Source: Watersipora subatra (taxonomy: Eukaryota). Taken from it: a stretch of DNA of 64,000 nucleotides. Each line of letters starts with the position of its first letter. The first letter of the stretch is position 1. The position numbers and the translations under genes are program-made. Below, piece by piece: positions 13,081 to 43,174 of the stretch. The notes below the pieces were generated by a model. It searched no databases. It had not been told where the DNA came from and worked only from the letters and a program-made list of their open reading frames with translations. Where the stretch lies: contig NC_088716.1 in NCBI RefSeq assembly GCF_963576615.1, forward strand, positions 43,495,910 through 43,559,909. Reading direction: 5' to 3'.

Positions 13081-13212
13081 TTAGCCATTTAGCTCACCCA
13101 GAGACAAAACACCAGCATCTATAAGCAGTTCCTCCAGTGCCTTGTAATTGAACTTTTCAACCTTCTTGGTAGCAAGTAGATAACTCTCAATAAGAGTTAT
13201 GTTGGAGTCCGT
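13081..13212 (-). CDS. Candidate 3'-terminal coding exon: TDSNITLIESYLLATKKVEKFNYKALEELLIDAGVLSLGELNG*.
   Basis: Minus-strand acceptor 'aattgttacag|ACGGACTCC', open frame for 43 codons, then TAA (plus-strand tta at 13081-13083). It belongs to a gene lying at higher coordinates. Confidence 0.3.
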   Translation of the reverse strand, partial: TDSNITLIESYLLATKKVEKFNYKALEELLIDAGVLSLGELNG

Positions 13213-14418: not shown

Positions 14419-14858
14419 GCCAATCAACATTAGAATAGCGAAATGATGAGAAGTTTTGAGCCAATCAACATTAGAATAGCAAAATGATGAGAAGTTTTGA
14501 GCCAATCAACATTAGAATAGCGAAATGATGAGAAGTTTTGAGCCAATCAACATTAGAATAGCAAAATGGTGAGAAGTTTTGAGCCAATCAACATTAGAAT
14601 AATGAAATGGTGAGAAGTTTTGAGCCAATCAACATTAGAATAGCAAAATGATGAGAAGTTTTGAGCCAATCAACATTAGAATAGCGAAATGATGAGAAGT
14701 TTTGAACCAACCAACATTAGAATAGCGAAATGGTGAGAAGTTTTGAGCCAATCAACATTAGAATAGCGAAATGGTGAGAAGTTTTGAGCCAATCAACATT
14801 AGAATAGAGAAATGATGAGAAGTTTTGGGCCAATCAACATTAGAATAGCGAAATGATA
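14419..14858. repeat. 41-bp minisatellite, about 10.7 copies (gccaatcaacattagaatagcgaaatgatgagaagttttga).
   Basis: Exact period of 41 bp (unit starts at 14419, 14460, 14501 and so on). Produces the artefactual ORFs 14240..14505. Confidence 0.9.
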
Positions 14859-17143
14859 AAAAGCGCTTTTTGGCGATCCCATGTTGACAAAGGAGAGATG
14901 GTCAAACTCTATTTAATGGTTGAAAAGCGATCTCGACCAATTGCGGGAAGATATTCTACTTTTATTGACATTGGCATTTTACTTTTCGTTGACATTGGCC
15001 AGCGCATTGCTAGGTGACATTCATATCAAGAGACTGCACTACACATTTATGCCTTAGTGACAAGACAAACAGTGTATTCCTATACATATTCAAATGAGAG
15101 CTACCAAACAACCGCGATACAGCGAAGTCGCGATCGTCGAAGCCGAGCAGTAGGATTGATTACTGTATTCATCTCAATAGTTTTAGATTATCTTTCACGG
15201 CTCAGACCAAACCACTATGAAATTTCAAGAACTTACAAACCGTTGCATACCCTAGTAGTTCAACAGTCTGCTAACAGACAGGATGTGGCATTTAGCTAAA
15301 AGCTACCTGTTGATACAGGACTGGACTGAATATAGGTGATGGAGCTGATTCGTCCAAATCGCATCCAATGAGATGCAAAGATTCATTCCACTTAAAATCA
15401 GTAAGCCTGGCGTAGCTGATTCGTAAATGCACCTCACCACCTACAAGCATAGCCACAACATGATCAAGGTAAGTATATATGACATGACTTTGGAATGAAC
15501 ATAAAGCTTTTACTATAATAAGAGCCGCTTCTGTCTGTCCATCCTTCTAAAAGTGGGGTTAGAGGCTAGGATGAAAGATTGCATCAAACGAGATTAGAAC
15601 TTCTTAGGATCCCATTCCACCTGCGCTAACCTTCCAGCATATCCAAATAACTAGGCAGATGATTATTCCCTGTGCTCGATTAACGCACTAAACACGAGGC
15701 GCTAGAACATATCATATAACTATATATCAGGGTGCTAGCACAAATTATGTTTGGCTAGTTATAACCTATCTAACCTCATTATAAAACTAAGATCTCAAAA
15801 AGCTGTGTGATTGAGCGTTTGACTAGAAACTTTGTTCTTTAAAACCTCGTCAATCACGTCTTCATAAAAAGATTCATGTTTCCCAACTATATTCGCGGAT
15901 AGACAAATGATACACTGAAAATACATGCATTTCTTCATCAAGTACATTTAAACGTTGGCAAAAACTTGGACAAAAAACTGGCTCATACATAATAGAATGC
16001 TTAGAAGAAACTCTTGTTTGTACATCTAATACTCCACACCATTTTTTTGTACATGAATAATTTACACAGACAAAGACTTATTTCTAGTTCAATGGCATTG
16101 TTTGTAATAATCGTAATATAATTCCATAAGTTTTTGGCAATTTTTGTTTTATATATATTATATACATTATTTTATATATTTATATTACCGCCAAACTTTT
16201 AACGCATGACAAAGAAAACCAAAGAATTCTTGGCAGATGAATAAGATAACAAAGACTGGGTTGGATTGTGTCAAAGGTATGACAGAAATATTAATCAGAA
16301 CATTTTAAAAATGAAAAAAATTTATTATAAGCATGGACAACTGATCACCAAGGTAGACATGCAGCAGATGTTTCAGCAACCTGAAAATGTTTTTAAGCTC
16401 TAATAGGTTAAAGTAAAAAGATAAGTTACTTTGCGCTCAAAGATTGGAGCCTGTGATAGGCATTTATATTGTTGTACTGCCATTGAAATGTCATGTACCC
16501 TAACTTCTAGCTTGTTACAGGAATCAGAGCTAACTGCGCTAACTAACTGCACTTTTGTCACGACTGTTGATCCCCTCATGAACTCTTAATATTTATTAGA
16601 TCTCAGTCTACATTGATTAACAGTAATCAATACAATAAACCTTCAGTCAAAATTTAAAACTTGTTGCTAAATATTCAAATAAGCAACAATGTTAGTTGTC
16701 CGCTCTCGTCCTTGTTTGTTTAGGTAAAAATGTTGGACTCTGTCCAAGGGAGTTCACAATTAAGATAGAAAGACAATTTTTCATAAAAATCACCTGTATT
16801 GACACAAAGTATTGACATAAAGTGTGTTAAAATACAAATAAACCATACTAGTAATCACATGACAGTCACATGAAAGATCAGCGTGTGTAAGAAGTATGTT
16901 CATAACTATTCCATAAAATACCAAGATAGCAAAGTGGTGGAGTGGTTAATGCGCTTTTCTAGAAAATTGAATAATTGAGTTCAATTCTGAAGGGGAGAAA
17001 TTTTTCCCTAATGCTTTTAGCGTGGTTACGGATGGAAAGACAGACATGGCTCTTATTATAGTAAAGATTGCGAAGCTCTGGAATCATTTCATAATTTATT
17101 ATGCTTATATTCAAAGTACCTTGATGAAACCTAAAAGTCTTAC

Positions 17144-17216
17144 CTAAGATTTTCTGATAGATTCCATAAGAATCATCAACGCAGAATTCCATTGATTCCG
17201 TTACTGGTTCTGGCTC
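17144..17216 (-). CDS. Short internal exon (phase 0 to 1): EPEPVTESMEFCVDDSYGIYQKIL. Probably the next exon downstream of the proline-rich exon of copy A.
   Basis: Minus-strand acceptor 'tttttttcaag|GAGCCAGAACC' and donor 'ATCTTAG|gtaagact'. It overlaps ORF 16959..17267 (-). It is phase-compatible with the donor at 17928, which ends in phase 0. Confidence 0.35.
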
Positions 17217-17269
17217 CTTGAAAAAAATAAATGAAAATGTGTGAAAGATGCAAGACTTAGAGAACAAAC

Positions 17270-20200
17270 AGCATCAGTAACTAACATCTCGCTGCAACAG
17301 ATCAAGCATCTGACTCTAACCACATTCTCAGACAAGTTTTAAGGGTGGTTAAAGTGAATAGGGCAATTTGACTCGGTGCTTGCTGAATGAACACGTTTTG
17401 AACAAACTTAAGCGTCCAGGAAGAGGGCTGGCAAATATATCACAAAACATCTCAAAACATACGCAATTAAGAACAGATTTTGTTGCTTTCTACGCAGCAT
17501 TAAGAAAAAAGTTAAAGACTTGCACTATGATGGAGTGATACTGTCTTTCCGTTCATTGAACTTGCCTGAAAGATTATCCAAACCAATATTATAAAAGTCA
17601 TTGAGTTCAAACATTCAGTGAACTGGCAATAAATTCTTCTTGAAACTCCAGAAAAAAACAATTGACAGCAACTTATTATTTTATCAATATTTGGGAATGT
17701 CTAAAAAATGCTATGCATACAAGAATCTACTGTATACTACATAGTACAGAAAGTACAATTCTGGTGGGTAACTGTAATTTACATGTATATGGCTTTACTG
17801 TTATTCAACTAGCCCTTGATAATGCCTGTGAGACGCGCTACTAAGCTTAGAGTATGCTACCAAATCAAAAAATATTAAACCTCTGAAGAACATGATGCCA
17901 AGTTGTAGAAATAATAACCAGATTCACCTGAAAATTTTCGTTCCTTTTCCTCTCAAGCCTTGGCACCATCCTCTTTTTCATCGTGCTTGGTAACCTCATC
18001 TCGGAATTGGATGGAAAACATTGTGACATAGCTGCTGCATCCGCTAAGGATGACATGAAGTTCATGACTTGATGTTGAACTTGTTCTGCTGGTTTTGATG
18101 CAGTATTAGTTTTTAATGTAACAGACTGCAGTGATGATGTCATACCTTGAGGCACCGACTCTGCCAACTCCATCACTTTCACCTCACTCTTCGACTCCAT
18201 CTCAGAATGGGATGAGAGACAGAGATAGGATACGTTAGAGTACTGTTTAGTTCGAGGTCGTGGTAATCCAGATGTCATACCTGCTGCTGAAGATACCCTG
18301 ATATGCTGATATGGTGGTGGTGCTTCAGATGTCACACCTTGGGGCGATGATGGTGCTAGTGAAAATACCCTGTCTTGAGGTGGTGGTGCAGATGGCACTA
18401 CTCGAGGTGGTAGTGGTGGTGGTTTACTATAGTAATTCGTGTTTCCGTAAACTGACAGCCAAGCTAAAATTTATTAAATCCAATCTCTATCTAAAAATCA
18501 GCAAGTCTTATTATCTTATACATATACTCCAACTATAATATATTATGGCAAGACAAAGCGTAGTTCTTAATTGATTAAAAATACACTAGCGTGCTTGTGC
18601 CTTTGCATACATTTTGAGTTTTAAAGAACACTTTTCTAATACATACAGTGCAACCTCAGGTTACAATTTTTATCCATTACAGAGTTGGCATCATATGGGG
18701 AGAAAATCGTATAGAGAGATATAGAAAGCATAGTAATTATATAATGCGAACATCCCCTGCTAAAAATCATCAAAACTTTATACAAGTATACTGTACATAT
18801 TAAAAATTAGCAACAATGTAGTAGAGTAACTTTGGCGCCTATAGTTATCTACATCAACTTTAGTATATTTAGAGTATTTATTGGTTATAATCTGCATTAA
18901 AATGTAACATTGGAATGCGCTGAGCAGTACATACCGTAGAAGGTTCTTACCTTCAAGACAGACATATGTATAACATAGACTTTGAATTCACTTTAAATGA
19001 GTTCAGCTTACTAAACACAAATTTAAAGCTATGTTTTTGTATGCATTTTTAAACTATTTTATTGAATTTCAACTTTTCACTACTAAAATTTTATCACCTA
19101 TCGGTTTCTGGCTCTGTTTTCAGTGTAACTTTTAGTCGACTTGATTAAAACCTTTTTAACCTAATTCGCCAGGAAGCCTGAGCTATGCTGTTCTCGAAGA
19201 TGTTCTGTTTAATATCCAATGAAGTGGACTTTTGTTAGCAGGTAAAAAGAAGTTGCCTGACCACTGAACTTCCGTTTGAAGGGATTGCAACTCTAACTTT
19301 ACTACTGGTTAGTTTTAAAGGGAAAATATTAGTATTTTTCACATGAGAAATGCTGAACTGAGAGAAATTCTAGATTCTAGAGAACTAAGAGACTGCATCG
19401 CGTCTCTTTCATGCATTGTGAAAATGTTTTCGGTGAGCAGCATTTTGGCGTCTTCGTTATTTCCATGTACGTAATAAGCATACTGACTGCCAAATTTTAA
19501 CTCAAGCAAAAAATTTGTTGAATTGGTATGGTGAAATAAGATTCGTATGGTGAGGCGGAAAAATAATCATGTTCCAGTTCGTAAGGTGTAAACTCGTATA
19601 ACAGGGTAGTCGTATCCTGAGGGTGCCAATGATATCTGTATTAACAAATCCCACACTTTCATCATAAGTCTGTCTGTTACGTTAGTCCGTGTACGCATTA
19701 TGTTTCCACATTCTTGGCTGATTTCATCCAAACTTCACATGCATATGTGACAGGTGACATATGTGACAGGTGACATATGTGACAGGTGACATATGTGACA
19801 GGTGACATATGTGACGGGTGACATATGTGAAAGGTGACATATGTGAAAGGTGACATATGTGACAGGACATATCCTTGTCAATACAAATGAGGTCAGATCA
19901 GAAACTATTTTACAGCCTTATGTAATAGAAAAATTTCTCAGCTTTCCAAAACTGTTTTCGGAATTGGAAATAGTGCCATCGGCGCACAATCGAAAAGGTG
20001 CTGTTGGTCAATATGGTCAACATCAAAAAACTGAGAAATTTGTTTCCAAAAAGAATGGATTGGATTTTAAACAGTATCATCTATTGATGTTTAGGGAGGT
20101 CATTTCAACCGCACCCTACGAACATTACGTTTTTATGAATGTTAGAAATGGCTTGGCTTCAAAAAAGTTTAAGCCACATCGTTAATTTGACTTTGAGAGC

Positions 20201-20700
20201 CTATTGTGTACTATATGAAATGCCTCATTTGTATTGAAAATGATACGACCTGTCACATATGCTTCGTGCCCTCTACCAGGTCGCTAAAAGTATTTGGCTT
20301 CAAAACTCAGTCTGGTTCCTGGAAACCGTCTGGCCGAAGAAAGTCAGTCTGGTTCCTGGGTACTGTCCTATCAAACACCCACCTGCAGGCTATCTGATTG
20401 ACAATGAAATAAATTCTGGACATAAGCGGGTCGACTGCTACAGTAAGCCAGAAGGTAGTTGATAAGTGCAGGTAATACAGTGTCAGACTGCTAGGCTGAA
20501 TGTCATGAGTTCGAATCCCGCGCAAAACAATCTTTATGAAGATAATAGAAGAACTTGAATTATTGCCTGTATTATGTATTCAGTGTGACGATTTTAAGCA
20601 AAATTAGAAGATAGTCAGAGTTTTGTAAGTAATAAGTAATAGACTGTCTTCCTGCTTAGCAGAATATCTTTACTATAATAGGAGTGGTACCCGTGATGTT
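17270..20700. repeat. Segmental duplication, copy A, in module order Y-Pro-X-Z.
   Basis: 17270-17830 matches 27395-28345; 17830-18400 matches 24720-25260; 18400-19380 matches 26430-27380; 19380-20700 matches 28560-30310. Each pair is roughly 90-95% identical by eye. Confidence 0.8.
17928..18398 (-). CDS. Proline-rich coding exon, paralogous copy A: ...PPLPPRVVPSAPPPQDRVFSLAPSSPQGVTSEAPPP...EMESKSEVKVMELAESVPQGMTS...RKRNENFQ|gtgaat.
   Basis: ORF 17865..18398 (-). Canonical donor 'AATTTTCAG|gtgaatc' at 17928/17927. It is ~85% identical to the 3' part of the exon at 24722-25976. The 5' boundary is not resolved, since the frame is still open above 18398. Confidence 0.5.
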
Positions 20701-23700
20701 AAAAATTATTGCGTGAGAAATGGGTTTTATGAGCAAACTACCAGAGGTCCATCCATTACCTTCGGCATATTTAATGTGGAAATGTAGGCCCACTCCGGGC
20801 AATGCCTGGCTCAATTCGCAGTCTTGGAACTTTCATTTTCCATATAAAAGCACCACAATCTATCTGATGAAAAATGCAAGAACGCGCCTTTCCTTGTTAA
20901 ATCACTTAAATGTCACTATTAGAATAAAAACACCTTGAAGCAAGAAATTGGGCTCAAAAATTTTAACGAACAATAAAATTATATACAGTAGTAAAACTTA
21001 CTTCTAGATGTTCCCATGATCGACCTTTAAGCTTTAAACTTTTTTAATTAACTTGTTTGAAAAATAAAAATTGAAATAGCTGAAATGTTCGATACGCAAT
21101 ATAAAACTAGAAGTCACATCATGTAATCTTTCACAAAAAAAGAAAATTGATGGTTAACCAATCTAAATCAAGTAGCAAAACATGGTCTGGGCAGATACGG
21201 CTCTAAACGTTTACACAGAACCAATAAAGTTAGGTGTCAATAAGACTAGATATTAAGTGAGACAGACAAACAAAATTTGAAGTCACCTCATAGACATCAT
21301 CTGCTTGAACAATGGTTAGGGTCAAAGACTTTTGTTAAACAAAGCATTAGAGTCATTTACTGATTGTCACATGGAACCACGAGAATCATTGCAAATTGAA
21401 AGGGCAGCCAGAAACTTTGTAAAAAGTTGTCTGAAGAGGGAAAAGATCATCTAGAGAGGAATTGCTCATTCCTAACATTAAATAATAAAACTAGTTTATT
21501 CAATGGCTGACTTGGCAGTCTGAGAATGTCAGAGACTATAAACTGGCATAATTAAGACATGAAAATTCTTGATATGCAGTTTTAAACAAAAAATAATACA
21601 TTGACACTGACCGATGTAATAAATAATTTATTTACCAAATAAAAATATACAGTTAGACTGATATAAGAGTAAATACTTATAACATGAGGTCATGTGATTG
21701 AGCAGCTCTTTGTGCTCACTGATTGGCTGGCAGTCACACTACTTATTTTAATCTAAACCATCAGTAGGCCTGGTGACGCTTGGGATGTTTCCTTATCAAT
21801 CAGATACCCTAAAGGTGAGTGTTTAGGAAGCTGGTTCATAGGAACCAGATGGAGTTTTGAGACCAAATACTTTAGTGACTTGACTAAATAAAAAAGTATA
21901 TGCCGGTGAAGTTTGGAAAACATCAGCCAGTAAACATCCACAATCTTTTCAAGAATATGATAAATAATAACAATGAATAGAGAAGTACTCTGGACAAAAA
22001 CTGAACGAACCTGTCACGGGTGCTGATCCCCGGGCCTTAGGAGGAGCATTCCAGCGCCGATCCACTAAATAGTAAGAAGACATATTATATGAGTAAAATT
22101 ATTACACAGAAGTAATTATACTCTACTAAACATAATTAGACTAACACAAAAGTAATGCATGATACAGACAGCAAAGACAGTGGCTTTATAAACACATGAA
22201 TGATGCTATAACTAGGTGGTAATAGCCTTAGGACCTCGATAGAGTCAGGTAATAATCATGCATATGATGATCACTCTCTCTTACGCTACAGATATCGAAT
22301 ACCGTTAAGTATTCGAGCAACAATAACTCGAGCTGACATTTCGGTGAAGAGTTAGTTTATTGGTTGGCTATGTGCCAAAGCTTAAGTTTATCCAAATCCT
22401 TAACAAACAAACACAACTCCCTTTCCCCATCAGCTTCTATCACGCATAAAGTTGTGTAATCAAGCAGATTATCTTCATGTCCACCAATCACCTGACTGCT
22501 GCCCCAACTCACTTCAATCTAACAATCACCTGACTGCTGCCCCTACTCACTTCAATCTAACAATCACCTGACTGTTGCCCCAACTCACTTCAATCTAACA
22601 ATCACCTGACTGTTGCCCCAACTCACTTCAATCTAACAATCACCTGACTGTTGCCCCAACTCACTTCAATCTAACAATCACCTGACTGTTGCCCCAACTC
22701 ACTTCAATCTAACAATCACCTGACTGTTGCCCCAACTCACTTCAATCTAACAATCACCTGACTGTTGCCCCAACTCACTTCAATCTAACAATCACCTGAC
22801 TGTTGCCCCAACTCACTTCAATCTAACAATCACCTGACTGTTGCCCCAACTCACTTCAATCTAACAATCACCTGACTGTTGCCCCAACTCACTTCAATCT
22901 AACAATCACCTGACTGTTGCCCCAACTCACTTCAATCTAACAATCACCTGACTGTTGCCCCAACTCACTTCAATCTAACAATCACCTGACTGTTGCCCCA
23001 ACTCACTTCAATCTAACAATCACCTGACTGTTGCCCCAACTCACTTCAATCTAACAATCACCTGACTGTTGCCCCAACTCACTTCAATCTAACAATCACC
23101 TGACTGTTGCCCCAACTCACTTCAATCTAACAATCACCTGACTGCTGCCCCAACTCACTTCAATCTGTTAATCACCTGACTGCTGCCCCAACTCACTTCA
23201 ATCTATTAATCACGTGGCTGCCTGGCTTTATGCCTGCTATGATTGATGTGTTCTATTTACATAATGTAGGAATGAATGGGTTGACAGGAACCTAATACAG
23301 GGTCAAGATGTGACAATAAATATTTTAAAATCTAAAATATCTAACAATTTCACCATTCAAGTATTTAGACGCTAAAATTCACACACCAAGTTTCTTGCCA
23401 CAACCTTTACCAAGCCGAAGATCTTTGAGATTCATGGAGGTGTTTTTCTATGACAACCACTATGATATTATTAGATCATATATGTTAACATGTTAATATG
23501 TTATATCTACATTAACTTAACAAACAGTTATAAACTTTTAACAGAAGAGTCATCTCATCAAATTTAGAAATATACCAACAAGTTATTTAACCGTTTTTGA
23601 GATGTTAACAGTTAATACCAGCACTTCCAACCAACATACATTCTTCCTTCTCTTCCATTACCCCCATAAAGATAACGTTACCAAACAATGCTGACGAATA

Positions 23701-23780
23701 TTCTTCGCAGTCCTCTACCGTTTCCTCCGCACAGTCCGTAACAGCAGCATAATACAATTCCATACCAGGAGAGAAACACA
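20680..23780 (+). repeat. Composite ~3 kb interspersed repeat, copy 1, ending in the 38-bp array and then the TATATACATACAG satellite.
   Basis: Collinear with 31930-35340 and 40125-43160. Shared landmarks: 'ggagtggtacccgtgatg', 'ttaaccaatctaaatcaagtagcaaaacatggtctgggcag' and 'caatcagataccctaaaggtgagtgtttaggaagctgg'. Confidence 0.75.
22485..23210. repeat. 38-bp tandem array, about 19 copies (aacaatcacctgactgttgccccaactcacttcaatct).
   Basis: Exact 38-bp periodicity. Shorter arrays of the same unit lie at 24538-24721, 34885-35078 and 41565-41755. Confidence 0.9.
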
Positions 23781-24062
23781 GTATATATACATACATACAA
23801 TATATATACATACAGCATATATACATACAATATATATATATAGTATATATACATACAGTATATATACATACAGTATACATACATACAGTATATATACATA
23901 CATACAATATATATATACATACAGTATATATACATATATTGTATGTATATATACATACAGTATATATACATACAGTATATATACATACAGTATATATACA
24001 TACATTATATATACATACAATATATATACATACAGTATATATACATACAGTATATATAGTAG
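23781..24062. repeat. (TATATACATACAG)n-type satellite.
   Basis: Direct repeats. The same satellite occurs at 43175-43608 and 52449-52705, each time abutting the conserved 'cgcacgggtaataaaa...ttgcacagaaaat' module. Produces the artefactual poly-Tyr/Ile/Cys ORFs. Confidence 0.9.
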
Positions 24063-24537
24063 ATTAATTTTTGGCGTCGCACGGGTAATAAAAACGTTTT
24101 TGCACAGAAAATTTACATTTAATCAGCATATGCAACATTTACCATTCTAACTTTCAAATGAAGGTTTTTGTTCATTTCCGTGTACTGTGTTTATTTATGT
24201 GTACTAAGCTTATTTCTGTGAAATTCATACTGCGCCGGCTACTGTGCCCACTACAGCTTTATACTGATTGCATTAGTTTTGTTGGTCGTGTGAGTTGAAG
24301 CAATTTTCTTCTCGTATGGGCTCGTATTGTTCTTCTGACATGGCTTCACGCATAGCGTTAGCTGAAGTGTCAAACATGAAGCCATGAAAGAGTGACACAT
24401 GTTTGTTGAACGATCCTTCAAATTTAGGCAAAAATTTAAGCACAAATTTAGGCAAAAAATGAAGTACAAAAAAATTAAATGCTGTAATAAATACAAAATT
24501 AGTATGAAATAACAGAATATTTGTAATTTTCCCAACA

Positions 24538-24721
24538 ACCACCTGAATGTTGCCCCAACTCACTTCAATCTAACAATCACCTGACTGTTGCCCCAACTCA
24601 CTTCAATCTAACAATCACCTGACTGCTGCCCCAACTCACTTCAATCTAACAATCACCTGACTGCTGCTCCAACTCACTTCAATCTAACAATCACCTGACT
24701 GCTGCCCCAACTCACTTAAAC
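24538..24721. repeat. 38-bp tandem array, about 5 copies, directly abutting the stop or donor of the proline-rich exon.
   Basis: Same unit as 22485-23210. It ends at 24721, one base before the TGA at 24722-24724. Confidence 0.85.
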
Positions 24722-25976
24722 TCACTCAATCACTTTCACCTCACTCTTCGACTCCATCTCAGAATGGAATGAGAGACTGAGATAGGATACGTTAGAGTAC
24801 TGTTCAGTTCGAGGTAGTGGTAATGCAGATGCCATACCTGCTGCTGAAGATACCCCACCTTGGGGTGGTAGCGCAGATGACACTCCTCGAGGCAGTAGTG
24901 GAGGTGCTACCGCTGCAAATGCATTTGCTTGAGATAGTAGCGGTGGTGGTGGTGGTGCTTCAGATGTCATAGCTTGAGACGATGATGGTGCTGCTGAAGA
25001 TACCCCACCTTGAGGTGTTGGTGCAGATGACAATACCCTGCCTTGAGGTGTTGATGCAAATGACCCTACCGTGCCTTGAGGTGGCAGTGGAGGTGGTATC
25101 GCAGCAAATGCATTTGCTCGAGATGGTAGTGGTGGTGGTGCTTCAGATGTCACACCTTGGGGCGATGATGGTGCTAGTGAAAATACCCTGTCTTGAGGTG
25201 GTGGTGCAGATGGCACTACTCGAGGTGGTAGTGGTGGTGGGGCGGCTCCAAATAGCATACCTTGAGTTTGCAGTGATGCTGATGCCCTATATTGAGGCCG
25301 TGCCATGGCAATGCGACAGGTTTGTCCGTAGTTTTCTACTGGGGAGTTTGGTACTGGGGATGATTTATTGGACACTTGAGAATCAAATCCGGCATCTTTT
25401 ATCTGGTTAGTTACAGAGATATCATCATCGAAACGTGCTGAGGATTGAGAAGTCATGAAGGATTTTATAGAAGATGAAGTTCGTACCTGAGGACTAAAGC
25501 CAGTCGTTTTTGAAGACCTTTTTTTCATTACTCTGCTAGGAGACAGTTTAACAGGCAAATCTAGTCCCTGGATTAACAGAGGTGCTGCTGAAGTCTTAGC
25601 ACCAAATGATTCAGACTGCTTCGCAAGATTGCACAGCTTTTGTGCAGACATTGGCAATGTGGTTTCAGACTCTTGAGTCATTCCAAAATTCTCCTCCGTA
25701 CCTCTTGTACTCGGCAGCGAATCTGTGGAGTTCATGTGAACATTTTCGTCATCCTTTGACACTGCTGAAAGAGCAGAGACACTTGAAAGGTTTGATAAAA
25801 AGTTTAGTCTAGGTCTAAACTTCTTAGCTGATCTAGGCAGAGAATATCTGGCAGAAGTTGGTGAATATTTTGGAGAAGTTGAAACATGAGCCGCTTCAAG
25901 GTCACCAGGAGGAAGTGGGAAAGAGAGAGATGAACTGAGAGGTTGAGACATTGAAGAGGTGCTCTGCATCCCATAA
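24722..25976 (-). CDS. Large proline-rich coding exon, paralogous copy B (~418 codons). It has a Ser/Thr-rich N-terminal part, followed by repeated PPPLPP / APPPQ / SSAPTPQGGVSS motifs resembling an FH1- or WASP-like proline-rich tract, and ends EMESKSEVKVIE followed by TGA.
   Basis: ORF 24722..25987 (-), whose 'M' is a TTG. Minus-strand acceptor 'tttgaatttag|GTTATGGGATG' at 25977/25976. The TGA forms part of 'ATTGA|gtgagt', so it may alternatively be a splice donor. It is immediately followed by the 38-bp tandem array. Confidence 0.55.
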
Positions 25977-27924
25977 CCTAAATTCAAACAGTACTTTTAT
26001 CATCCCAAGATCATTCAATCAAGTAGGCTTGCATACAATAGATTTTGCTAGAGTGAATGATGGTAATCAGTAACCTTAGCACAACCCATTGCCTTTAAAT
26101 GTAGCCATGCAATAATTAAATACTGTTTTTAAGGAAGTCTTCAAAAAATCACAATGTAATGACTTATTTTAATTTTGTCTTAAAAATGTTAAACGATGTA
26201 TTGTAAAAGAATTATAAAAACAAGTTTAATATACACTGGTATAGTTTAACTCAAAGTCCTTATCAATATATGGTAGAATCAATCAACTAAGCAGGCTCTA
26301 AAAATCTGTTGACGCTCGCTAACACTCTTAGGAGAAATTATAATAATTTAGTTAATTACTTTTTGTGTTTTTTTGTGTTTTATGTTTTTGTGTTTATATG
26401 TTTGTGTTGATTTTTGTGTTTACTATAGTATTTCGGGTTTCTGTAAACTGACAGCCAAGCTAAAATTTATTAAATCCAATCTCTATCTAAAAATCAGCAA
26501 GTCTTATTATCTTATACATGTACTCCAACTATAATATATTATGGCAAGACAAAGCGTAGTTCTTAATTGATTAAAATACACTAGTGTGCTTGTGCCTTTG
26601 CACGCATTTTGAGTTTTAAAGAACACTTTGCTAATCCATACAGTGCAACCTCAGGTTACAATTTTTATCCATTACAGAGTTGGCATCGTATGGGGAGAAA
26701 ATCGTATAGAGAGGTATAGAAAGCATAGTAATTATATAATGCGAACATCCCCTGCTAAAAATCATCAAAACTTTATACAAGTATACTGTACAAATTAAAA
26801 ATTAGCAACAATGTAGTAGATTAACTTTGGTGCCTATAGTTATCTACATCAACTTTAGTATATTTAGAGTATTTATTGGTTATAATCTGCATTAAAATGT
26901 AACATTGGAATGCGCTATGAGCAGTACATACCGTAGAAGGTTCTTACCTTCAAGACAGACAGATGTATAACATAGACTTTTAATTCATTTTAAATGAGTT
27001 TAGCTTACTAAACACATATTTAAAGCTAAGTTTTTGTATGTATTTTTAAACTATTTTATTGAATTTCAACTTTTCACTACTAAAATTTTATCACCTATCG
27101 GTTTCTGGCTCTGTTTTCAGTGTAACTTTTAGTCGACTTGATTAAAACCTTTTTAATCTAATTCGCCAGGAAGCCTGAGCTATGCTGTTCTCGAAGATGT
27201 TCTGTTTAATATCTAATGAAGTGGATTTTTGTTAGCAGGTTAAAAGAAGTTGCCTGACCACTGAACTTCCGTTTGAAGGGACTGCAAGTCTAACTTTGCT
27301 ACTGGTTTTTAAGGGAAAATATTAGTATTTTTCACATGAAAAATGCTGAACTGAGAGAAATTCTAGACTAATTGTCTAGAACTAGCCTAGAACAAACAGC
27401 ATCAGTAACTAAAATCTAGCTGCAACAGATCAAACATCTGACTCTAACCACATTCTCAGACAGGTTTCAAGGGTAGTTAAGGTGAATAGGGCAATTTGAC
27501 TCGGTGCTTCCTGAATGAACACATTTTGAACAAACTTAAGCGTCCAGGAAGAGGGCTGGCAAATATATTATAAAACATCTCAAAACATACGCAATTAAGA
27601 ACAGATTTTGTTGCTTTCTACGCAGCATTAAGAAAAAAGGTAAAGACTTGCATTATGATGGAGTGATATTGTCTTTCCGTTCATTGAACTTGCCTGAAAG
27701 ATTATCCAAACCAATATTATAAAAGTCATTGAGTTCAAACATTCAGTAAACTGGCAATAAATTCTTCTTGAAACTCCAGAAAAAACAATTGACAGCAACT
27801 TATTATTTTATCAATAGTTGGGAATGTCTAAAAAATGCTATGCATACAAAAATCTACTGTATACTACATAGTACAGAAAGTGCAATTCTGGTGGGTAACT
27901 GTAATTTACATGTATATGGCTTTA

Positions 27925-28305
27925 CTGTTATTATTATTATTATTATATTATATGGCTTTACTATTATTATTACTATTATATGGCTTTACTATTATTATTA
28001 TATTATATGGCTTTACTACTATTATTACTATTATATTATATGGCTTTAGGGGCCTACTATTATTATTATATTATATGGCTTTACTATTATTATTATATTA
28101 TATGGCTTTACTACTATTATTACTATTATATTATATGGCTTTACTACTATTATTATTATATTATATGGCTTTACTATTATTATTATATTATATGGCTTTA
28201 CTACTATTATTACTATTATATTATATGGCTTTACTATTATTATTATATTATATGGCTTTACTATTATTATTACTATTATATTATATGGTTTTACTATTAT
28301 TCAAC
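27925..28305. repeat. Expansion of ~50-bp units (tatatggctttactattattattat-like), present only in copy B.
   Basis: The copy A ortholog (17790-17815) has a single unit. Produces the artefactual poly-Leu/Tyr ORFs 27768..28315. Confidence 0.85.
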
Positions 28306-29406
28306 TAGCCCTTAATAATGCCTGTGAGATAATGCCTGCAGCTTGTTCCAAGCTGAATAAATTTTAGCTTGGCTTTCAGTTTACAGAAACCCGAAATACT
28401 ATAGTAAATACAAAAACCAACACAAACATATAAACACAAAAACATAAAACACAAAAGATAATTAACTAAATTATTATAATTTCTCCTAAGAATGTTAGCG
28501 AGCATCAACAGATTTTTAGAGCCTGCTTAGTTGATAGACTAGTTCTCTAGAACTAGTCTCTAAGTTCTAGAGAACTAAGAGACTGTATCGCGTCTCTTTC
28601 ATGCATGGTGAGAATGTTTTCGGTGAGCAGCATTTTGGCGTCTTCGTTATTTCCATGTACGTAATAAGCATACTGACTGCCAAATTTTAATCCAAGCAAA
28701 AAATTTGTTGAATTGGTATGGTGAAATAAGATTCGTATGGCGAGGCAGAAAAATAATCATGTTCCAGTTCGTCAGGTGTAAACTCATATAACAGGGTAAT
28801 CGTATCCTGAGGGTGCCAATGATATCTGTATTAACAAATCCCACACTTTCATCATAAGTCTGTCTGTTAGTCCGTGTAGGTATCATGTTTCCACATTCTT
28901 GGCTGATTTCATCCAAACTTCACACGCATATGTGACAGGTGACATATGTGACAGGTGACATATGTGACAGGTGACATATGTGACAGGTGACATATGTGAC
29001 AGGTGACATATGTGACAGGACATATCATTATCAATACAAATGAGGTCAGATAACAAATTATTTTACAGCCCTATGTAACAGAAAAATTTCTCAGCTTTTC
29101 AATACTGTTTTCGGAATTGGAAATAGTGCCATCGGTGCACAATTGAAAAGGTGCCGTTAGTCAATATGGTCAACATCAAAAAAACTGAGAAATTTGTTTC
29201 CAAAAAAGATGGATTGGATTTTAAATAGTATCATCTATTTATGTTTAGGGAGGTCATTTCAACCGCACCCTACGAGCATTACATTTTTATGAATGTTAGA
29301 AATGGCTTGGCTTCACACAAGTTTAAGCCACATTGTTAATTAGACTTTGAGAGGCTATCGTGCACTATATGAAATGCCTCATTTGTATTGAAAATTATAC
29401 GACCTG

Positions 29407-29914
29407 CATACATGCCAAGTCTCCCGGTTTGGCCGGGACCCTCCAGTTTTTTAAGTCAGTCTCCCTTTTGCACAAAATCTCCCGTTTTCCTCCAGCTTTT
29501 TCAAATAAAAGTAGTGGTTTAATTTTTTTCTTTGCCGTTCTCCTTTTGTTTACTAGTTGTGAGCCCTCATCATCATACAAAGTTAGCAACAATGAAACAG
29601 ATCGCTATTAAACCGTATGTTTGCCATAAAACCTGGGCTATTTAGATTTAGCAACATTGATGTCTAACGATTTGCTCTACAGTTTTTCATCAATAAACAA
29701 AGATTATACATGGAGCTGTGACATATCGTTGGCAAACGACCATGACCTCACATTGATAGTAGAGTACCTGAACATTAAATAAAATCGTGAAAGGGCCTCC
29801 TATGTAAGTACCAATGAAGAAAAAAAACTTCACAAAGAAATCTAGGCTTCAGATTCAACTACTACATTTACCGTCAATCTCATGCTTTTTTTTCTCAACT
29901 ACTTGGCAAGTATG
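29407..29914. mobile_element. Non-autonomous hAT-like MITE (508 bp) with 14-bp TIRs (catacatgccaagt ... acttggcaagtatg) and a perfect 8-bp TSD, acgacctg.
   Basis: TSD at 29399-29406 and 29915-29922. An empty site in paralogous copy A (~20235, 'gatacgacctgtcacat') carries a single acgacctg. An 8-bp TSD is characteristic of hAT elements. There is no transposase ORF. Confidence 0.75.
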
Positions 29915-31929
29915 ACGACCTGTCACATGTGCTTCGTGCCCTCTACCAGGTCGCTAAAAGTATTTAGTTTCAAAACTCAGTCTGGTTCCTGGAAACCGTC
30001 TGGCCAAAGAAAGTCAGTCTGGTTCCTGGGTACTGTCCTATCAAACACCCACCTGCAGGCTATCTGACTGATAATGAAAGAAATTCTGAGCATAAGCGGG
30101 TCGACTGCTACAGTAAGCCAGAAGGTAATCGATAAGTGCAGGTAATACAGTGTCAGACTGCTAGGCTGAATGTCATGAGTTCGAATCCCGCGCAAAACAA
30201 ACTTTTATGAAGATGATAGAAGAACTTGAATTATTGACTGTATTATGTATTCAGTGTGACGATTTTAAGCAAAATTAGAAGATAGTCAGAGTTTTGTAAG
30301 TAATAAACTGTCTTCCTGCTTAGCAGAATATCTTTACTAGCCTAGGACACTTTTGCATTCGCGTCATCTAACTTTCAAATTTTCGCGGAGTCATTCATCT
30401 CGCGAAAATTTCATGAGCGAAACTAAACTATCATAACGAACGAGCGAAAACGCGAACTTAAATAGCTTTGTTCATTGATATCCACAAGAAAATCATCTAA
30501 TTAGAAATGCAGGTAACCTTTGTGTGTGGTTGGGCTCGTTGGGCAATTTCTGCTAAACTCATTATAGCTAATACGCCGACTGAGCAGCGTGGCAAAGCAA
30601 ATTGAGATAACAAGTTCTTTTGGAAAAGCAGGCCTGTATTCTCTGGTTGCAAATTGGGGCAGCTAATGTTAGGCGACTAGTTATGAGCATCTGGGGGTTT
30701 GGAGGGGCTGTATCAGCCCCCTCAACAGGTTTCTTTCATGTAGGGCCTCAACCGGGCATCTCACGTAAAGTTTTAAAATATTTTATCGGAAAGTATAAAC
30801 ATTGTTTCTTTAATTTGAGATTTGTTTGTTTTAGGTGATGTGACTGCTAGGACGTTTTCAGATTAAAACAGGCTAAGCTTGACCGCAGTTAAAACGCTCA
30901 GAAAAAAGACATCTTTTTTCTTTTGAGTGTTTCAACAAAGATCAATTTTGCCGATTTTATTTTTAGTTCATCCAAAGGTTTTTACGCTTTCGTTGGGCCA
31001 TTGCCAAATAGATGTTTGGTAAAACTTGACCTTTTGCAAACCTTTATAAAAGTCGTTAACAAAAATATTTTGCCAATCATGATAATAATGACGCCCAAGA
31101 ACTGTTAAAAGTTAACGTTTATCTCTATGGCTTGGAATAAAGTGATATTCTACAGCGATAAAAACCGTTCCCGTTAGACAAATAACTGTTCGAGTTAATG
31201 ATGTTGAGGTCGAATTATCTAAAGCACTTTATCATTACATGGGAACAGACCACAGAAATCCATTCGTGTTAACCAAGTGTTCGTGATAAAATTTTACATT
31301 CTATCCGAAGGCGAGTTCTCCGAGTTTGACTATACTTAGCCGCCAAAAATTCCTAAAAAGTTGGGGCGGCTCAGCCGGCCAGCTGTCCCAGGGAATACGG
31401 GCCTGTGGAAAAGCCAAGACAAATGAAGAAGATGATGATATTAGTTTAGTCACTGAATTTGTAACTGATGCGGATGAAAGTCTGGTAGGGAAAGTCATAA
31501 AATTGAATAATAATTATTGTAGCGATGAATTTTATTACCAACCAAAAACAATAACAACCTTGAGCCATGGCCACCACGTGCTATAAATACTTGAGATATA
31601 ATATTGGTGCCACATCAGCCACGGCGGGCAAGGGCAATGACCTAGACGTCATTGATAGTCCAAGAAACATATAGTAGCAAGCGATCAAATTGCATTGTTG
31701 ATCTCGCCCACACATTTCTACCCGCAATTCACAAATACAAACTAGTCTCAAATTGAAAAATTCTTTTACTAGTGAACTGGACCTGAGGAATCCAATTATG
31801 TTTGTTCTACTGCATTTATTTTCACATCCCTATATCTTCGCACTCATCAGATCCGCGAAATTAAGTTGTAGCGAAATTTTACTCTGTATGCTACTCACGA
31901 AAATAAATACTAGCGAAATATAAAGTGTC

Positions 31930-34900
31930 CGGGATATAATAGGAGTGGTACCCGTGATGTTAAAAATTATTGCGTGAGGAATGAGTTATATGAGCTGACT
32001 ACCAGAGGTCCATCCATTACCTTCGGCATATTTAATGTGAAAATGTAGGCCCACTCCGAGCAGTGCCTGGCTCGATTCGCAGTCTTGGAACTTTCATTTT
32101 CCATATAAAAGCGCCACAAGAACGCGCCTTTCTTGTTAAATCGCTTAAATGTCACTATTAGAATAAACACACCTTGAAGCCAGAATTGGGCACAAAAACT
32201 TAATGAACAATAAAATTATATACAGTAGTAAAACTTACTTCTAGTTGTATCATGTTCCCTTGATCGACCTTTAAGCTTTAGGATTTTTTTAATTAACTTG
32301 TTTGAAAAATAAAGTTTGAAATAGCTGAAATGTTCAATACCCAATATAAAATTATAAATCACATCATGTAATCTTTCACAAAAAAAAGAAAATTGATTGT
32401 TAACCAATCTAAATCAAGTAGCAAAACATGGTCTGGGCAGATACGGCTCTAAACGTTTAAACAGGACCAATAAAGTTAGGTGTCAACAAGACTAGATATT
32501 AAGTGAGATAGACAAAAAAAATTTGAGTTCACCTCATTGACATCATTTGTTTAAACAACAGTTAGGGTCAAGGACTTTTGTTAAATAAAGCATTAGAATG
32601 TTTACTGATTGTCACATGGAGCTACGAGAATCCATGGAATATGAAAGGGCAGCCAGAAACTTTATAAAAAGTTGTCTGAAGAGGGAAAAGGTCATCTAGA
32701 GAGGAATTGCTCATTCCTAACATTAAATAATAAAACTAGTTCATTCAATGGCTGACTTGGCAGCCATTGAATAAATAATTTGGTAAATGATTTATTTACC
32801 AAATAAAAATATACAATTAGACTGATATAAGAGTAAATACTTATAACATGAGGTCATGTGATTGAGCAGCTCTTTGTGCTCACTGATTGGCTGGCAGTCA
32901 CACTACTTATTTTAATCTAAACCATCAGTAGGCCTGGTGACTGCTTCGAATGTTTCCTTATTAAAGAATAGAGAAAGCATAATATTATTATGCTTTATTA
33001 GTTATCTTCAGGTGTTGACTGATGTTCTAAAAAAAGAATCAAGGAGATTGACCCACTAGAAGCTGAGATATAGCCAGCCAAACACAGGTCTACCTAATAA
33101 AGAATCAGAGGAAAACCCTTCGAAAATCCCGAAAACTGTGACGTATAAAATCGACTTAATGTTCATGTGCCGGAGTTGCGCACCCTTACCGCCGTTACGT
33201 ATAATGATTGTTTTGGCTACGAGATGTGAAACGCTTCTCGCGATAGTAAATAATTTACAGACTAGCTCTGGTTTCTCAGGAAAATCAAGCAAACATTGTG
33301 TGGTAAAGGCATTTACCCACAACCCCTCGCTGTGATTTTTCAAAACAGAAGAGCATATTTTGACTATTGTGCTTCAAATTTTAACTCGGTCTCCACGGAT
33401 ATGCTCCGAAGATCCTCTGTTCAACTAACGGCGCGTGTATGGTCTATATGCGACATCCGCGATTGCAGTTTGTTTAGAATAAGAAATGGGAATGTGAATT
33501 TTTGTTCATTCATCATTTTTCTACTGTGTATCTACTGCAGCATTTAGTTGATTTTCATTATTATCGTCACTATTAACAGACTGTAAGTTCACCACGGCCA
33601 TAATCTTAAAAAGAATAACTTGACCGTGCTGCTCTTGCTGTAAGAAAAGAAAACGATAATTTTTGATTTGATTTTTCTATTGATCTATTATCTTATCTAT
33701 GATTATTTTTTATGATTGATATAATAATCATAATGCATATTATACAAAATAATAATATAACTGCGTATAGAATAAATGATGTAGGCTAACTAATATAATT
33801 TGTAAAAAGTGATAGCAGAATGTTGCGAAATAATAGATGCGTGTAATTATTTTATTCTAAAACTAATCTACACGTCAGAGGGACTGGTTCGGAATTCTCA
33901 GAGCAATGATCGTTAGGCCCAATTTGATTGTTCTATACTTCCAGGGTTTAAACCAATTAAAACGCCGTGATTGTTATAGGAGAGCGCATTAGTTGGCTTA
34001 ATTGACCAATAGCACACAAGTCGATTTCATACGTCATATATCGATGATTACCAAAACACTTATGTTTTTTGGTAGACCTGTGTTTGGCTGGCTATATCTC
34101 AGCTTCTGCTTGGTCAATCTCCTTGATTCTTTTTTTAGAACATCAGTCAACACCTCAAGATAAATAATAAAGCATAATAATATTATGCTTTCTCTATTCT
34201 TTAATCAGATACCCTAAAGGTGAGTGTTTAGGAAGCTGGTTCATAGGAACCAGATGGAGTTTTGAGACCAAATACTTTAGTGACCTGACTAAATAAAAGA
34301 GTATATGCCGGTGAAGTTTGGAAAACATCAGCCAGTAAACATCCACAATCTTTTCAAGAATATGATAATGACAATGAATAAAGAAGTACTCTGGACAAAA
34401 ACTGAACGAACCTGCCGCAGGTGCTGATCGCCGTGCCTTAGGAGGAGCATCCCAGCGCCGATCCACTAAATAGTAAGAAGACATGTTAGATGAGTCAAAT
34501 TATTACACAGAAGTAATTATACTCTACTAAATATAATTAGACTAACATAAAAGTAATACATGATACCGACAGCAAAGACAGTGGCTTTATAAACACATGA
34601 ATGATGCTATAACTAGGTGGTAATAGCCTTAGGACCTCGATAGAGTCAGGTAATAATCATGTATATGATGATCACTCTCTCTTACGCTACAGATATCGAA
34701 TACCGATGAGTATTCGAGCAACAATAACTCAAGCTGACATTTCGGTGAAGAGTTAGTTTATTGGTTGGCTATGTGCCAAAGCTTAAGTTTATCCAAATCC
34801 TTAACAAACAAACACAACTCCCTTTCCCCATCAGCTTCTATCATGCATAAAGTTGTGTAATCAAGCAGATTATCTTTATGTCCACCAATCACCTGACTGC

Positions 34901-35340
34901 TGCCCCTACTCACTTCAATCTAACAATCACCTGACTGTTGCCCCAACTCACTTCAATCTAACAATCCCCTGACTGTTGCCCCAACTCACTTCAATCTAAC
35001 AATCACCTGACTGTTACCCCAACTCACTTCAATCTAACAATCACCTGACTGCTGCCCCAACTCACTTCAATCTGTTAATCACGTGGCTGCCTGGCTTTAT
35101 GCCTGCTATGATTGATGTGTTCTATTTACATAATGTAGGAATGAAAGGGTTGACAGGAACCTAATACAGGGTCAAGATGTGACAGTAAATATCTTAAAAT
35201 CTAAAATATCTAACAATTTCCCCATTCAAGTATTTAGACGCTAAAATTCCCACATCAAGTTTTTTGCCACAACCTTTACCAAGCTGAAGATCTTTGAGAT
35301 TCATGCAGGTGTTTTTGTATGAAACACACTACGTTGTTAT
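31930..35340 (+). repeat. Composite interspersed repeat, copy 2, interrupted by a nested TIR element and 3'-truncated at ~35340.
   Basis: Collinear with copy 1, except for the insertion at 32960-34205. Confidence 0.75.
32960..34205. mobile_element. Nested non-autonomous TIR element (~1.25 kb) with ~130-bp terminal inverted repeats.
   Basis: 32960-33095 is the reverse complement of 34070-34205 ('ttaaagaatagagaaagcataatattat...ccaaacacaggtctacc'). The element is absent at the homologous point in copy 1 (21775 'ttccttatcaatcagatacc') and copy 3 (40868). Its internal ORFs show no transposase motifs. Confidence 0.7.
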
Positions 35341-37559
35341 TGGAGCATATATAGGTAAGCCCTTTTATTATGGGAAACACAGAATTTCAGAACCTCCTAT
35401 TAAGATTTGACTGAAAACATACTGTAACGTGTAAGTTTACAACAAAATTCTTTATTTTCAGAATTTTCACATTTTATGCTATCATAAACTGCAATATAAA
35501 GAATATTAACTTGAAAACGACATTTAAATAAATGTTTTGCTGGCTGGTGGGGTTGCGACCTAGTGCATCCAGAAGTATCATTCAGTTTTATTGTTGTTGT
35601 TCTCTGTATAGAGATAAAATATAATTCTAAAATGCTCTCCAATTAAAATGAGACAACTTTTGTTACAGTTAAAACATAATTCGCAAGCATTTTAATCTTC
35701 AAACACCAGTTTTACCGTTACGAACACTTTCAAAATAGCGTCACGCTAGTCATTAAAATTTGTGATGATAGTACTAGGCTCGCTTGCAAAAATTATTATA
35801 ATTACATCACTACTCCATCCAGACAAACTTTTAGTAAAATAGAAAATTTGACACTTTCAGCCATTTTTACAATAATAACACAGGCATTGCAAAAAAATTT
35901 CATCACAGATATGACATTCTAATTCAACTATGATTATCACGCCATCAGCGCTAATTTAAAATTGTTCTGATCTCCAACTTCAACAATGAATAAAAGCTTG
36001 TTTGTTTTATACTTTATTTGAAAAATGGATCATACAGATAATTGTAAAAGAGATATTTGTAAATTGCTTCCTTTTAGTTTTAATAACAGAGACTAACCTG
36101 ATGCTTTTTTAAATCTAGTAATACTGATGAGGGACTGTATGAGCATTTAATCGTCTCAGTCGTTACTCTTTAATGTATAACTAAATTTCTGTTAGCGAGT
36201 TGCGATAAGAACAAACATCTAGACTGGTAGTAAATTATCATTTAAAATAAAGTTTTACATAATATACTATAAACTAGGTGCTTGTCTTGCGCTAATGATT
36301 AGATTAATTCGCTTTTAAAATATTTTTGTCAGTTGTTATTTCTTCTAAACAACGATCATGAATAGATAGGTAAATAGTAAGATAGTAAATAATGATTAAA
36401 TTAAATTAAATTAGGCTCAGATTACAACTGCTGTTAGTAAATATTTATTGCCCCATAATCTATAAATTATTTATTGTTATCGTTTCAAATGTTAGTTATC
36501 AACAATTTAATCAGTCACAAGAAGAGTTACTAATTTTTAGTTTGTGGAATTGGTAAAAAAACATATTTACATATCATTCATTGAATATAAATAGCTTTAT
36601 TGCCTGCAGAGTCTGTATATTGATGCAATTTTATTTGAATTAAAACTCTTCTAATTTTATAATAAATATGGTGTTAATTTCTAAACATCAACTAAACAAT
36701 AAGGTTTCACTTAGATCGGTTTAAGAATAAAGCACTATAATAGCTATGTAGGCTATGATGTATAATAAGCTACTACTCCAACTAAAATATATCATTTCAA
36801 ATAACTCTTTAAGAAGACTGCCATCTAAATTGACAGAAGGCAAGAGTTATCAAAAGCTTCGCAAAGAGCAGGAAGAATAAGCCAAGAACGACAGTCAGTT
36901 GTGTCATAACTATTAATACAATATGACTGAGAAGAGACAAGCTATGAGAGATGAAGTATTCAAAACACCGTAACAATGTACTATATTCCTGCAAGTCAGT
37001 ACACACAGGGTGTCACATCACACTGTGCTACCGAGTTCATTAGTGTCTTATGACTATCATGGTGTCTTTTTGTCACATGCATTTGCATCCCAATGAGACG
37101 CCACACAATCGTCAATATATAATGGACTAACTGGCCGATTTTAAACTTTTTTGAAGTTTTAAATAGATAAGATGTTGTATTATGACATATTAAAATTAGA
37201 GAATGTTTAAAAAACTTTGAAAAATGCACCAAAAATTTTCTGCAAGAATCTCATAATAGAAAATCTTACACATGTGTTACAACATAAAGTTAATAAATAC
37301 CTTCAACTTAATAGACAGTTACAGATATTTAACAGAAGAGTCAGTATCATCAAACAATTAGATTCATCCTATCAAATTTAAACATACCAACAAACTATTT
37401 AACAGGTTTTTAACATGTTATGTTTTTAACAGGTTACGAGATGTTAACAATACATACCATTAAGTTCTTCATATTCCTCTTCAAATTCATTCATTGAGTC
37501 CCCCCAATAGGTATCACACACTTTCATGGCTGGAGAGACAGATATATAATAAGTATATA

Positions 37560-43160: not shown

Positions 43161-43174
43161 TGGAGAGAAACACA

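Follow-up and report, generated by a model that had tools for sequence, protein, structure and literature searches.

A partial segmental duplication, probably with a minisatellite-patched junction, broken inside a proline-rich exon of Watersipora subatra

Tandem duplications that copy the 5′ end of a gene and recruit non-coding DNA as its new 3′ end are common, and have been described in two Drosophila species, with 143 and 96 cases respectively (Rogers et al. 2014, PMC4069613). The Drosophila surveys have also shown that modifying deletions and complex breakpoints are frequent in tandem duplications (PMC4069613). At the level of the junctions, templated insertions with junction microhomology are a recognised signature of fork stalling and template switching (FoSTeS) and of microhomology-mediated break-induced replication (MMBIR) (PMC5120786). 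End joining by polymerase theta at mismatched microhomology also leaves templated insertions at junctions (PMC13015775). The present analysis deals with a 64,000-nucleotide stretch of the Watersipora subatra genome (assembly GCF_963576615.1, contig NC_088716.1, forward-strand positions 43,495,910–43,559,909), called hereafter the window, in which all coordinates are counted from its first base. It contains two partial copies, A and B, of a minus-strand exon with a serine- and proline-rich open reading frame (ORF). Taken as a whole, this locus is probably the product of a partial segmental duplication that was broken inside the exon, that had its junction patched by a 38-bp minisatellite, and that left two fragments. 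As partial gene duplications go it is an ordinary one, and its junction is well resolved.

Copy B carries the start of the frame. Its ORF is open on the minus strand for 424 codons from stop to stop (25996 to 24725), with an ATG at 25969. From this ATG to the last sense codon (24725–25969) it spans 415 amino acids, and the ORF list gives it as 24722–25987, with 421 amino acids counted from a TTG. Its composition is dominated by serine (19%), proline (13%) and alanine (10%). The N-terminal 243 amino acids are single-copy in the window, and the C-terminal 172 consist of proline-rich in-frame repeats. The frames of ORF B and of copy A both exceed chance: no stop is found in the 252 non-proline N-terminal codons of ORF B, for 11.9 expected from dinucleotide shuffles (P about 7e-6), and none in 99 codons of the copy A extension described below, for 4.6 expected (P about 0.007).

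The original prediction had drawn attention to the end of this frame, and both the sequence and Tandem Repeats Finder (TRF) agree with its description. ORF B ends as ...SFHSEMESKSEVKVIE (...EMESKSEVKVIE; ...EVKVIE), with a TGA directly after it at 24724–24722, embedded in ATTGA|GTGAGT at the edge of a 38-bp tandem array. The T of this minus-strand stop is the final base in common with copy A, and its G and A are provided by the degenerate first repeat unit. Whichever frame is read, the 38-bp unit contains a TAG or a TGA, and the longest open run in the array does not exceed 15 codons. An immediate stop is thus to be expected for any ORF entering the array, and the idea of a special cause for a stop exactly at its edge was dropped for this reason. 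The nearest AATAAA lies 529 nt beyond the TGA.

A and B complement each other as fragments of a single exon. Copy B is devoid of the last ~80 codons and of the downstream exon, and copy A of the first ~250 codons. Searches of the window by tblastn and blastn find the N-terminal part of B, the A extension and the next exon only once; it is the middle part alone that is duplicated. The coding sequence common to both amounts to 243 bp only, in two blocks, A 18167–18298 corresponding to B 24724–24855 with 94.7% identity, and A 18312–18422 to B 25130–25240 with 100% identity. The remnant of the proline-rich part in copy A (18167–18422, minus strand) keeps the frame of B, and its internal repeat is shorter by 261 nt, which is 87 codons and in frame. 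Copy A then passes directly from 18422 to the equivalent of B 26418. The segment missing from it (B 25241–26417, minus strand) includes the ATG with the first ~250 codons, plus 420 bp of upstream DNA. Since the frame of B stays open across this segment, the difference is taken to be a deletion in A. The initial view of A and B as homologous copies is thus correct for the 243 bp in common, with the restriction that A is no intact paralogue, its first ~250 codons and ATG being gone.

All the A/B differences in the coding sequence are non-synonymous (7 against 0 synonymous, for 175 non-synonymous and 65 synonymous sites). The chance of finding zero synonymous changes under neutrality is 0.11, and the comparison offers no indication that purifying selection has acted after the duplication. 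As judged from the sequence, A and B as separate units are most likely non-functional or decaying. A separate observation concerns the identical 111-bp A/B block (18312–18422 versus 25130–25240), which lies amid neighbours of 94.7–96% identity and has a chance of about 0.003 at 5% divergence. This identity suggests gene conversion or a later exchange beside the deletion junction of A.

The continuation found in copy A is the native one, and B is the truncated, derived form. The open frame of A extends from 18470 to 17868 on the minus strand. Both copies have GTGAAAGTGAT[G/T]GAGT in common, after which A runs on as ELAESVPQGMTS...NENFQ. As had been noted beforehand, this extension (17929–18166, minus strand, copy A only) spans 80 codons, from 18167 to 17928, where it meets the donor CAG|GTGAAT, the strongest of the region's donor-like sites. 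The downstream exon proposed at 17144–17216 (minus strand) also agrees with the sequence: it would be a phase-compatible, single-copy exon of 73 nt, open in the phase-0 frame, to which splicing is predicted; its acceptor, tttatttttttcaag|, is rich in pyrimidines, and its donor is TAG|GTAAGA. The polarity is given by a 17-nt motif, C[CT]CAAG[GC]T[GA]TGACATC, which a search of both strands of the window found at 25161, 24978, 18343 and 18151 and nowhere else. Each of these copies falls inside this ORF, and the motif encodes PQG[V/M]TS, with PQGMTS in the A extension to be compared with PQGVTS and SQAMTS in B. The copy at 18151 opens the A extension, which is considered native because it holds this fourth copy of the ORF's own motif.

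These data bear on the reverse polarity, according to which the B end would be ancestral and A a chimera of a proline-rich fragment with unrelated open sequence or with sequence from another gene. Copy A is indeed the more damaged of the two, with no start and fewer repeats, and its extension has no homologues that would prove it to be coding. However, an unrelated sequence would hardly open with an ORF-specific motif found nowhere else in the window, stay open over 99 codons, and end in the region's best donor, with a well-formed small exon downstream. The B end, for its part, is bounded by two breakpoints 190 bp apart. The reverse polarity is thus very unlikely, and the reading in which the exon was truncated in B is retained.

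Comparison of the window with itself shows a large unit to be present three times in direct orientation, as unit A (18167–24535), unit B (24724–35352, with degenerate traces to ~37700) and the partial unit C (40033–44054). Region 18167–23608 of A is colinear with 24724–35352 of B, on the same strand, in blocks of 90–97% identity. Beyond the exon, the corresponding blocks are 18422–19374 and 26418–27367, 19369–20262 and 28559–29415, 20245–20675 and 29915–30339, 20674–21518 and 31935–32763, 21620–21796 and 32784–32961, 21798–22688 and 34203–35089, and 23017–23483 and 34886–35352. Unit C is colinear with part of A at 87–93% identity (40033–44054), and unit B carries several extra insertions relative to A. 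In the block beside the 38-bp array, A and B are 95.7% identical, versus about 93% for either of them with C.

Each unit has its own resident array of the 38-bp minisatellite on the minus strand, with 19.4 copies in A (22485–23220), 4.9 in B (34886–35073) and 5.4 in C (41567–41771). In all three units the array occupies the identical internal position, with the conserved flanks ...GCCAGGCAGCCACGTGATTA on one side and GTGGACAT[G/A][A/G]AGATAATCTGC... on the other. This common position and these common flanks imply that the three resident arrays were inherited with the duplicated unit, rather than inserted independently. The 38-bp array was also considered as a mobile element inserted four times, a candidate that was dropped since the arrays sit in colinear duplicated units.

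The junction array (24534–24724, minus strand) is different. It consists of 4.8–5 units of the minisatellite TTAGATTGAAGTGAGTTGGGGCAGCAGTCAGGTGATTG, and TRF describes it as a 38-bp repeat with 4.8 copies and 96% matches at 24534–24717. When the units are placed in register, the degenerate first unit (GTGAGTTTAAGTGAGTTGGGG...) starts at 24725, which means that the array begins at the stop of ORF B. None of the flanks of the resident arrays accompanies it. Its likely template, the resident array of unit A, lies at a distance of 1.3 kb and is 92–95% identical to it. On its low-coordinate side lies the end of unit A, and on its high-coordinate side the broken exon that opens unit B. Both edges are breakpoints: the A/B exon homology ends at 24724, and the A/C homology ends exactly at 24535/44054, with the sequence ...TTGTAATTTTCCCAA|. 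This end of unit A (23221–24535) is homologous to 41772–42147 plus 43025–44054 of unit C. The junction array can accordingly be described, from its sequence context, as a filler of ~190 bp between two breakpoints, the apparent scar of the A/B duplication.

The original prediction had proposed that an insertion of the repeat truncated copy B. Its first half holds, in that B is truncated and A has the native end. The insertion itself does not, and the remainder of the exon is not found beyond the array. Stated in full, this explanation would have a minisatellite, or a mobile element carrying it, enter or expand within an intact exon of B. It would account for an array starting where A and B diverge, and for the presence of 38-bp arrays four times in the window, as might be expected from a dispersed element; genuine TTAA-flanked insertions of miniature inverted-repeat transposable elements are also found nearby. 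What lies beyond the array is nevertheless the end of unit A, and neither tblastn nor a search with the word size lowered to 7 brought up a second copy of the A extension in the window. The other three arrays are at one position within colinear units and are thus not independent, and the junction array has neither resident flanks nor a target-site duplication. A simple insertion is therefore highly improbable.

The same junction has to be considered in terms of assembly. The two copies could be divergent haplotypes of one heterozygous locus, stacked by a repeat-induced mis-join. The join does fall in a minisatellite, and a divergence of about 4–10% with many indels resembles the haplotype divergence of some marine invertebrates. 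However, the window is free of Ns, the copies are complementary, each being deprived of a different end, which is unlike alleles, and a third partial copy, unit C, lies farther along. Moreover, the sequence is unique on both sides of the junction array, which implies that reads must have spanned it. An artefact of this kind has very little probability.

Returning to the partial duplication with a patched junction, the following history may be proposed. The ancestor would have been one large minus-strand exon encoding a serine/proline-rich, probably disordered orphan protein. Its order would have been the N-terminal ~250 codons, the proline-rich repeats, ...SEMESKSEVKVMELAESVPQGMTS...NENFQ (...EVKVMELAESVPQGMTS...NENFQ), the donor, and then the small downstream exon. 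A local direct segmental duplication, of the tandem type, would have copied the 5′ part of the exon and some 6 kb of the DNA upstream of it, with one breakpoint inside the exon (A 18167 = B 24724) and the other at the unit end (24535). Instead of being joined directly, these ends would have received a bridge of about 190 bp (4.8 units), for which the unit's own minisatellite, 1.3 kb off, served as template. At the break, the exon and the repeat unit resemble each other imperfectly over a short stretch, which may have helped. Just past the break, copy A reads GAGTTGGCAGAGTCGGTG, to be compared with GAGTTGGGGCAGCAGTCAGGTG in the repeat unit, and 18 of the 22 positions match, a score that ranks among the highest 2.3% obtained with random windows of 106 nt. 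The exon motif AAGTGATKG also resembles the end of the repeat unit, AGGTGATTG. From this scar we infer template switching or microhomology-mediated repair as the junction mechanism. The stop of B would have been formed at once, the T of the exon and the GA of the repeat making TGA, and non-coding DNA would have been recruited as the 3′ end. Copy A would have lost its first ~250 codons and its 5′ flank later, through a 1177-bp deletion, as well as 87 repeat codons.

Several observations do not fit easily with this history. The microhomology at the exon edge is modest (P about 0.02), and the other edge offers 2–3 nt only. At 24535 the boundary of the unit and the end of the A/C homology fall together, which a one-step tandem duplication does not predict. 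That a boundary is common to the A/B junction and to the A/C homology suggests breakpoint reuse or the terminus of a mobile element. An additional copy of an intron segment of A is present in unit B (27389–28329), which implies that more than a single duplication was involved. The two ORF fragments also remain open, although open frames are also expected for young pseudogenes at about 5% divergence, and this openness is thus no argument for function. A metagenome scan with ORF B returned no match, and the proposed order of events is drawn from the window. The exact pattern of the 38-bp unit gave 0 matches in metagenome contigs and 0 in viral contigs.

The additional intron segment belongs to a block present in unit B only (27368–28558, 1190 bp), which is flanked by TTCTAGA. 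This block comprises a second copy, 96.5% identical, of A intron segment 17261–17833, together with an expanded 33-bp array (27928–28301) and an inverted copy of 26282–26471. The matching site of unit A (19369–19376) reads TTCTAGATTCTAGA, which might represent the footprint of an excision or else the scar of a second template switch. With respect to the unit boundary, a dispersed element with a (TATATATACATACAG)n tail is found at 23702–24158, 37554–38405, 43096–43600 and 52341–52442. It is present at the ends of units A and C, as a 433-bp tandem pair in B, and as an inverted fragment at ~52.4 kb; it may define the common unit boundary at 24535/44054.

The locus can now be set against the systems described above. 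Like the Drosophila duplications of Rogers et al. 2014 (PMC4069613), it has one boundary in coding sequence, and its 5′ copy gains a new stop in formerly non-coding DNA. The copies are likewise adjacent and in direct orientation, and have undergone secondary deletions. Two features set it apart from that class: the recruited 3′ end is a 190-bp minisatellite block copied to the junction, rather than the sequence at the other boundary, and the parental copy, here A, is itself incomplete, since it has lost its own 5′ end. The junction resembles those left by FoSTeS/MMBIR (PMC5120786) or by polymerase theta (PMC13015775), with a short block copied from nearby that lies between breakpoints and may show modest, imperfect microhomology. 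Further copied and inverted pieces in the region also recall FoSTeS/MMBIR (PMC5120786). In contrast to those cases, the event is here a germline, fixed and old one, and its proposed mechanism is read from the scar. The template, in addition, is a tandem repeat, of which the copy may have grown or shrunk afterwards. The locus offers a clean natural example, resolved to the base, of a duplication junction patched by a minisatellite that supplies a stop at once. In practical terms, a gene finder might annotate two “paralogues” or one odd gene here. The importance of the locus goes little beyond annotation, and it would be of evolutionary interest only if the fragments were spliced together as a recent intron gain.

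This last question depends on the splice sites around the junction. The site at the array edge had originally been taken for a textbook donor, but it is not specific to the junction. GTGAGT is present in every 38-bp unit, AAGTGAGTTGG occurs 32 times on the minus strand, and each unit also holds CAG|GTGATT (31 times). Donor-like sites were ranked with a rough matrix, whose frequencies follow the metazoan consensus and which is of use for ranking alone. On this matrix TGA|GTGAGT at the junction obtains 5.3, the lowest value of 10 donor-like sites at or within the array, and the copy A donors score 8.8 and 9.4. Its intron half, GTGAGT, is perfect, and its exon half, TGA, is poor. Weak donor-like sites before the B stop are found at 24745, 24740 and 24726 (phases 1, 0 and 2), and the AGs upstream of the A remnant are in phases 1, 1 and 2.

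In a living gene with a new intron, a B donor would splice across the 6.3-kb block to an acceptor before the A remnant, and the transcript would then use the native 3′ end. The candidate donors would be TTGA|GTGAGT at 24726 (phase 2) or the weak sites at 24740 and 24745. The acceptor could be ctatag|T at ~18425 (phase 2) or, alternatively, one of the phase-1 AGs at about 18453 and 18464. In favour of this scheme, the window offers exactly one part with a start (B) and a single native end (A), on the same strand and in the right order, and both are still open. Sites 24726 and 18425 are compatible in phase, with the reading ...EVKVI-D-KPPPLPPRVV.... Intron gain via segmental or tandem duplication is also documented (PMC3265369, PMC4974935). 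Nevertheless, the donors cover three phases and the acceptors two, so that a phase match is nearly guaranteed and has no weight; phase compatibility was dropped as evidence of splicing for this reason. The B donors are weak (5.3–6.0, compared with 8.8–9.4 for those of A on the same rough matrix), the ctatag acceptor has a poor pyrimidine tract, and 7 of the 7 A/B coding differences are non-synonymous. The new intron as such is unlikely, and the same holds for the splicing of 24726 (or 24740 or 24745) to ~18425 and for the use of the phase-1 acceptors.

Compared with the documented cases of intron gain by duplication (Hellsten et al. 2011, PMC3265369; potato RNA-dependent RNA polymerase, PMC4974935), the locus has the same two partial exon copies on one strand, with removable DNA between them. 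There, however, a duplicated AGGT gave both splice sites and splicing was demonstrated, whereas the candidate sites are here weak and of differing origin. If the gene were alive, both sites would have been delivered by rearrangement scars, namely a GTGAGT donor from the minisatellite and an acceptor placed by the 1177-bp deletion, which is quite unlikely. The protein would then have a duplicated proline-rich module, and the duplication would have made an intron, not two dead fragments.

The nature of the encoded protein gives few clues. The proline tracts reported at first sight are real, PPPLPP, PPPQ and PPPPP all being present. A motif count gives PPLP three times, PxxPxR twice, and RxxPxxP and PPPPP once each, the other proline runs being of 3 residues; no FPPPP or WH2-like (LKK[VTA]) motif is found in a scan of ORF B. 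These tracts had been compared to FH1/WASP-type regions. The likeness to formin FH1 and WASP/WAVE regions lies in a low-complexity stretch with PPLP, PxxPxR and one PPPPP, which could in principle bind WW domains, SH3 domains or profilin. Unlike in formins, there is no FH2 domain C-terminal to the proline-rich region, and GBD/FH3 are absent from the ORFs or the 17 kb downstream in Pfam searches. The long polyproline tracts of the profilin type are also missing, with only one run of 5. Unlike in WASP/WAVE, Pfam detects no WH1/SHD, GBD or WH2-central-acidic module, whether in the ORFs themselves or, within 17 kb downstream, in any minus-strand ORF that reaches 35 amino acids. The region is, in addition, at least as rich in serine and alanine as in proline, unlike FH1/WASP regions. 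The FH1/WASP assignment is thus unsupported: as far as the sequence tells, it would be a resemblance of short motifs only, with no FH2, WH1, WH2 or other Pfam domain and no homologues in three database searches.

Indeed, no Pfam domain is found in ORF A, its extension included, or in ORF B. None, FH2 included, is found in minus-strand ORFs of at least 35 amino acids at 1–17300, a search that exons of less than 35 amino acids would escape. A protein-level search with the ORFs, which had been suggested as a check, yielded no homologue and one compositional match. A word-seeded search of 5.8 billion proteins found no homologue of the whole ORF B or of its N-terminal 243 amino acids. An exhaustive HMMER comparison of ORF A with 1.8 billion representatives gave one match (P0020, E = 3.7e-07). 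This is a 2991-amino acid protein with repeated CASC3/Barentsz domains, which matches only via its proline-rich linker PSLPPRAVPDAPPKQ. It was rejected as a homologue and considered a compositional similarity, ORF B having no Btz domain.

The surroundings of the locus are rich in repeats. The window is AT-rich (31–43% GC in 2-kb bins), and mini- and microsatellites are abundant, with 65 TRF rows. Scans of the window gave no Rfam match and no tRNA, and Pfam searches of the neighbouring ORFs returned transposon-type domains only. A fourth, more diverged copy (75–82%) of the DNA that precedes the ORF, the counterpart of 18661–19626 and 26656–28816, lies at 53123–53916, in the contiguous arrangement of A, which implies that the region upstream of the ORF is itself repeated DNA. 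Two non-autonomous DNA transposons are found at 32962–34202, in unit B only, and at 42148–43024, in unit C only. Both have ~140-bp terminal inverted repeats and TTAA target-site duplications, TTAA being a target site typical of piggyBac-type elements. The corresponding empty sites in unit A are at about 21797, where TCAA is found, and at about 23607 (TTAA).

On the plus strand, a 626-codon ORF at 46995–48872 shows a weak DUF6589-like match, with further stretches at 48945–49799 and 50125–50749. Its product has 19 relatives with at most 60% identity, of which all but one come from metagenome or sequencing-run assemblies, the exception being a 33% match in the crinoid Antedon mediterranea. It is probably the transposase-like gene of an uncharacterised mobile element. 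A 33-bp satellite, GTTCTGCTAGCATGCTCTTACATGTATATATAT, occupies 54134–56452 with 70 copies and 94% matches, and gives rise to long spurious ORFs on both strands. Farther along, at 58447–61582 on the plus strand, lies the remnant of a non-LTR (long terminal repeat) retrotransposon with interrupted frames, in which an RVT_1 ORF (59374–60564, E = 6e-26) is followed by a zf-RVT ORF (60695–61582).

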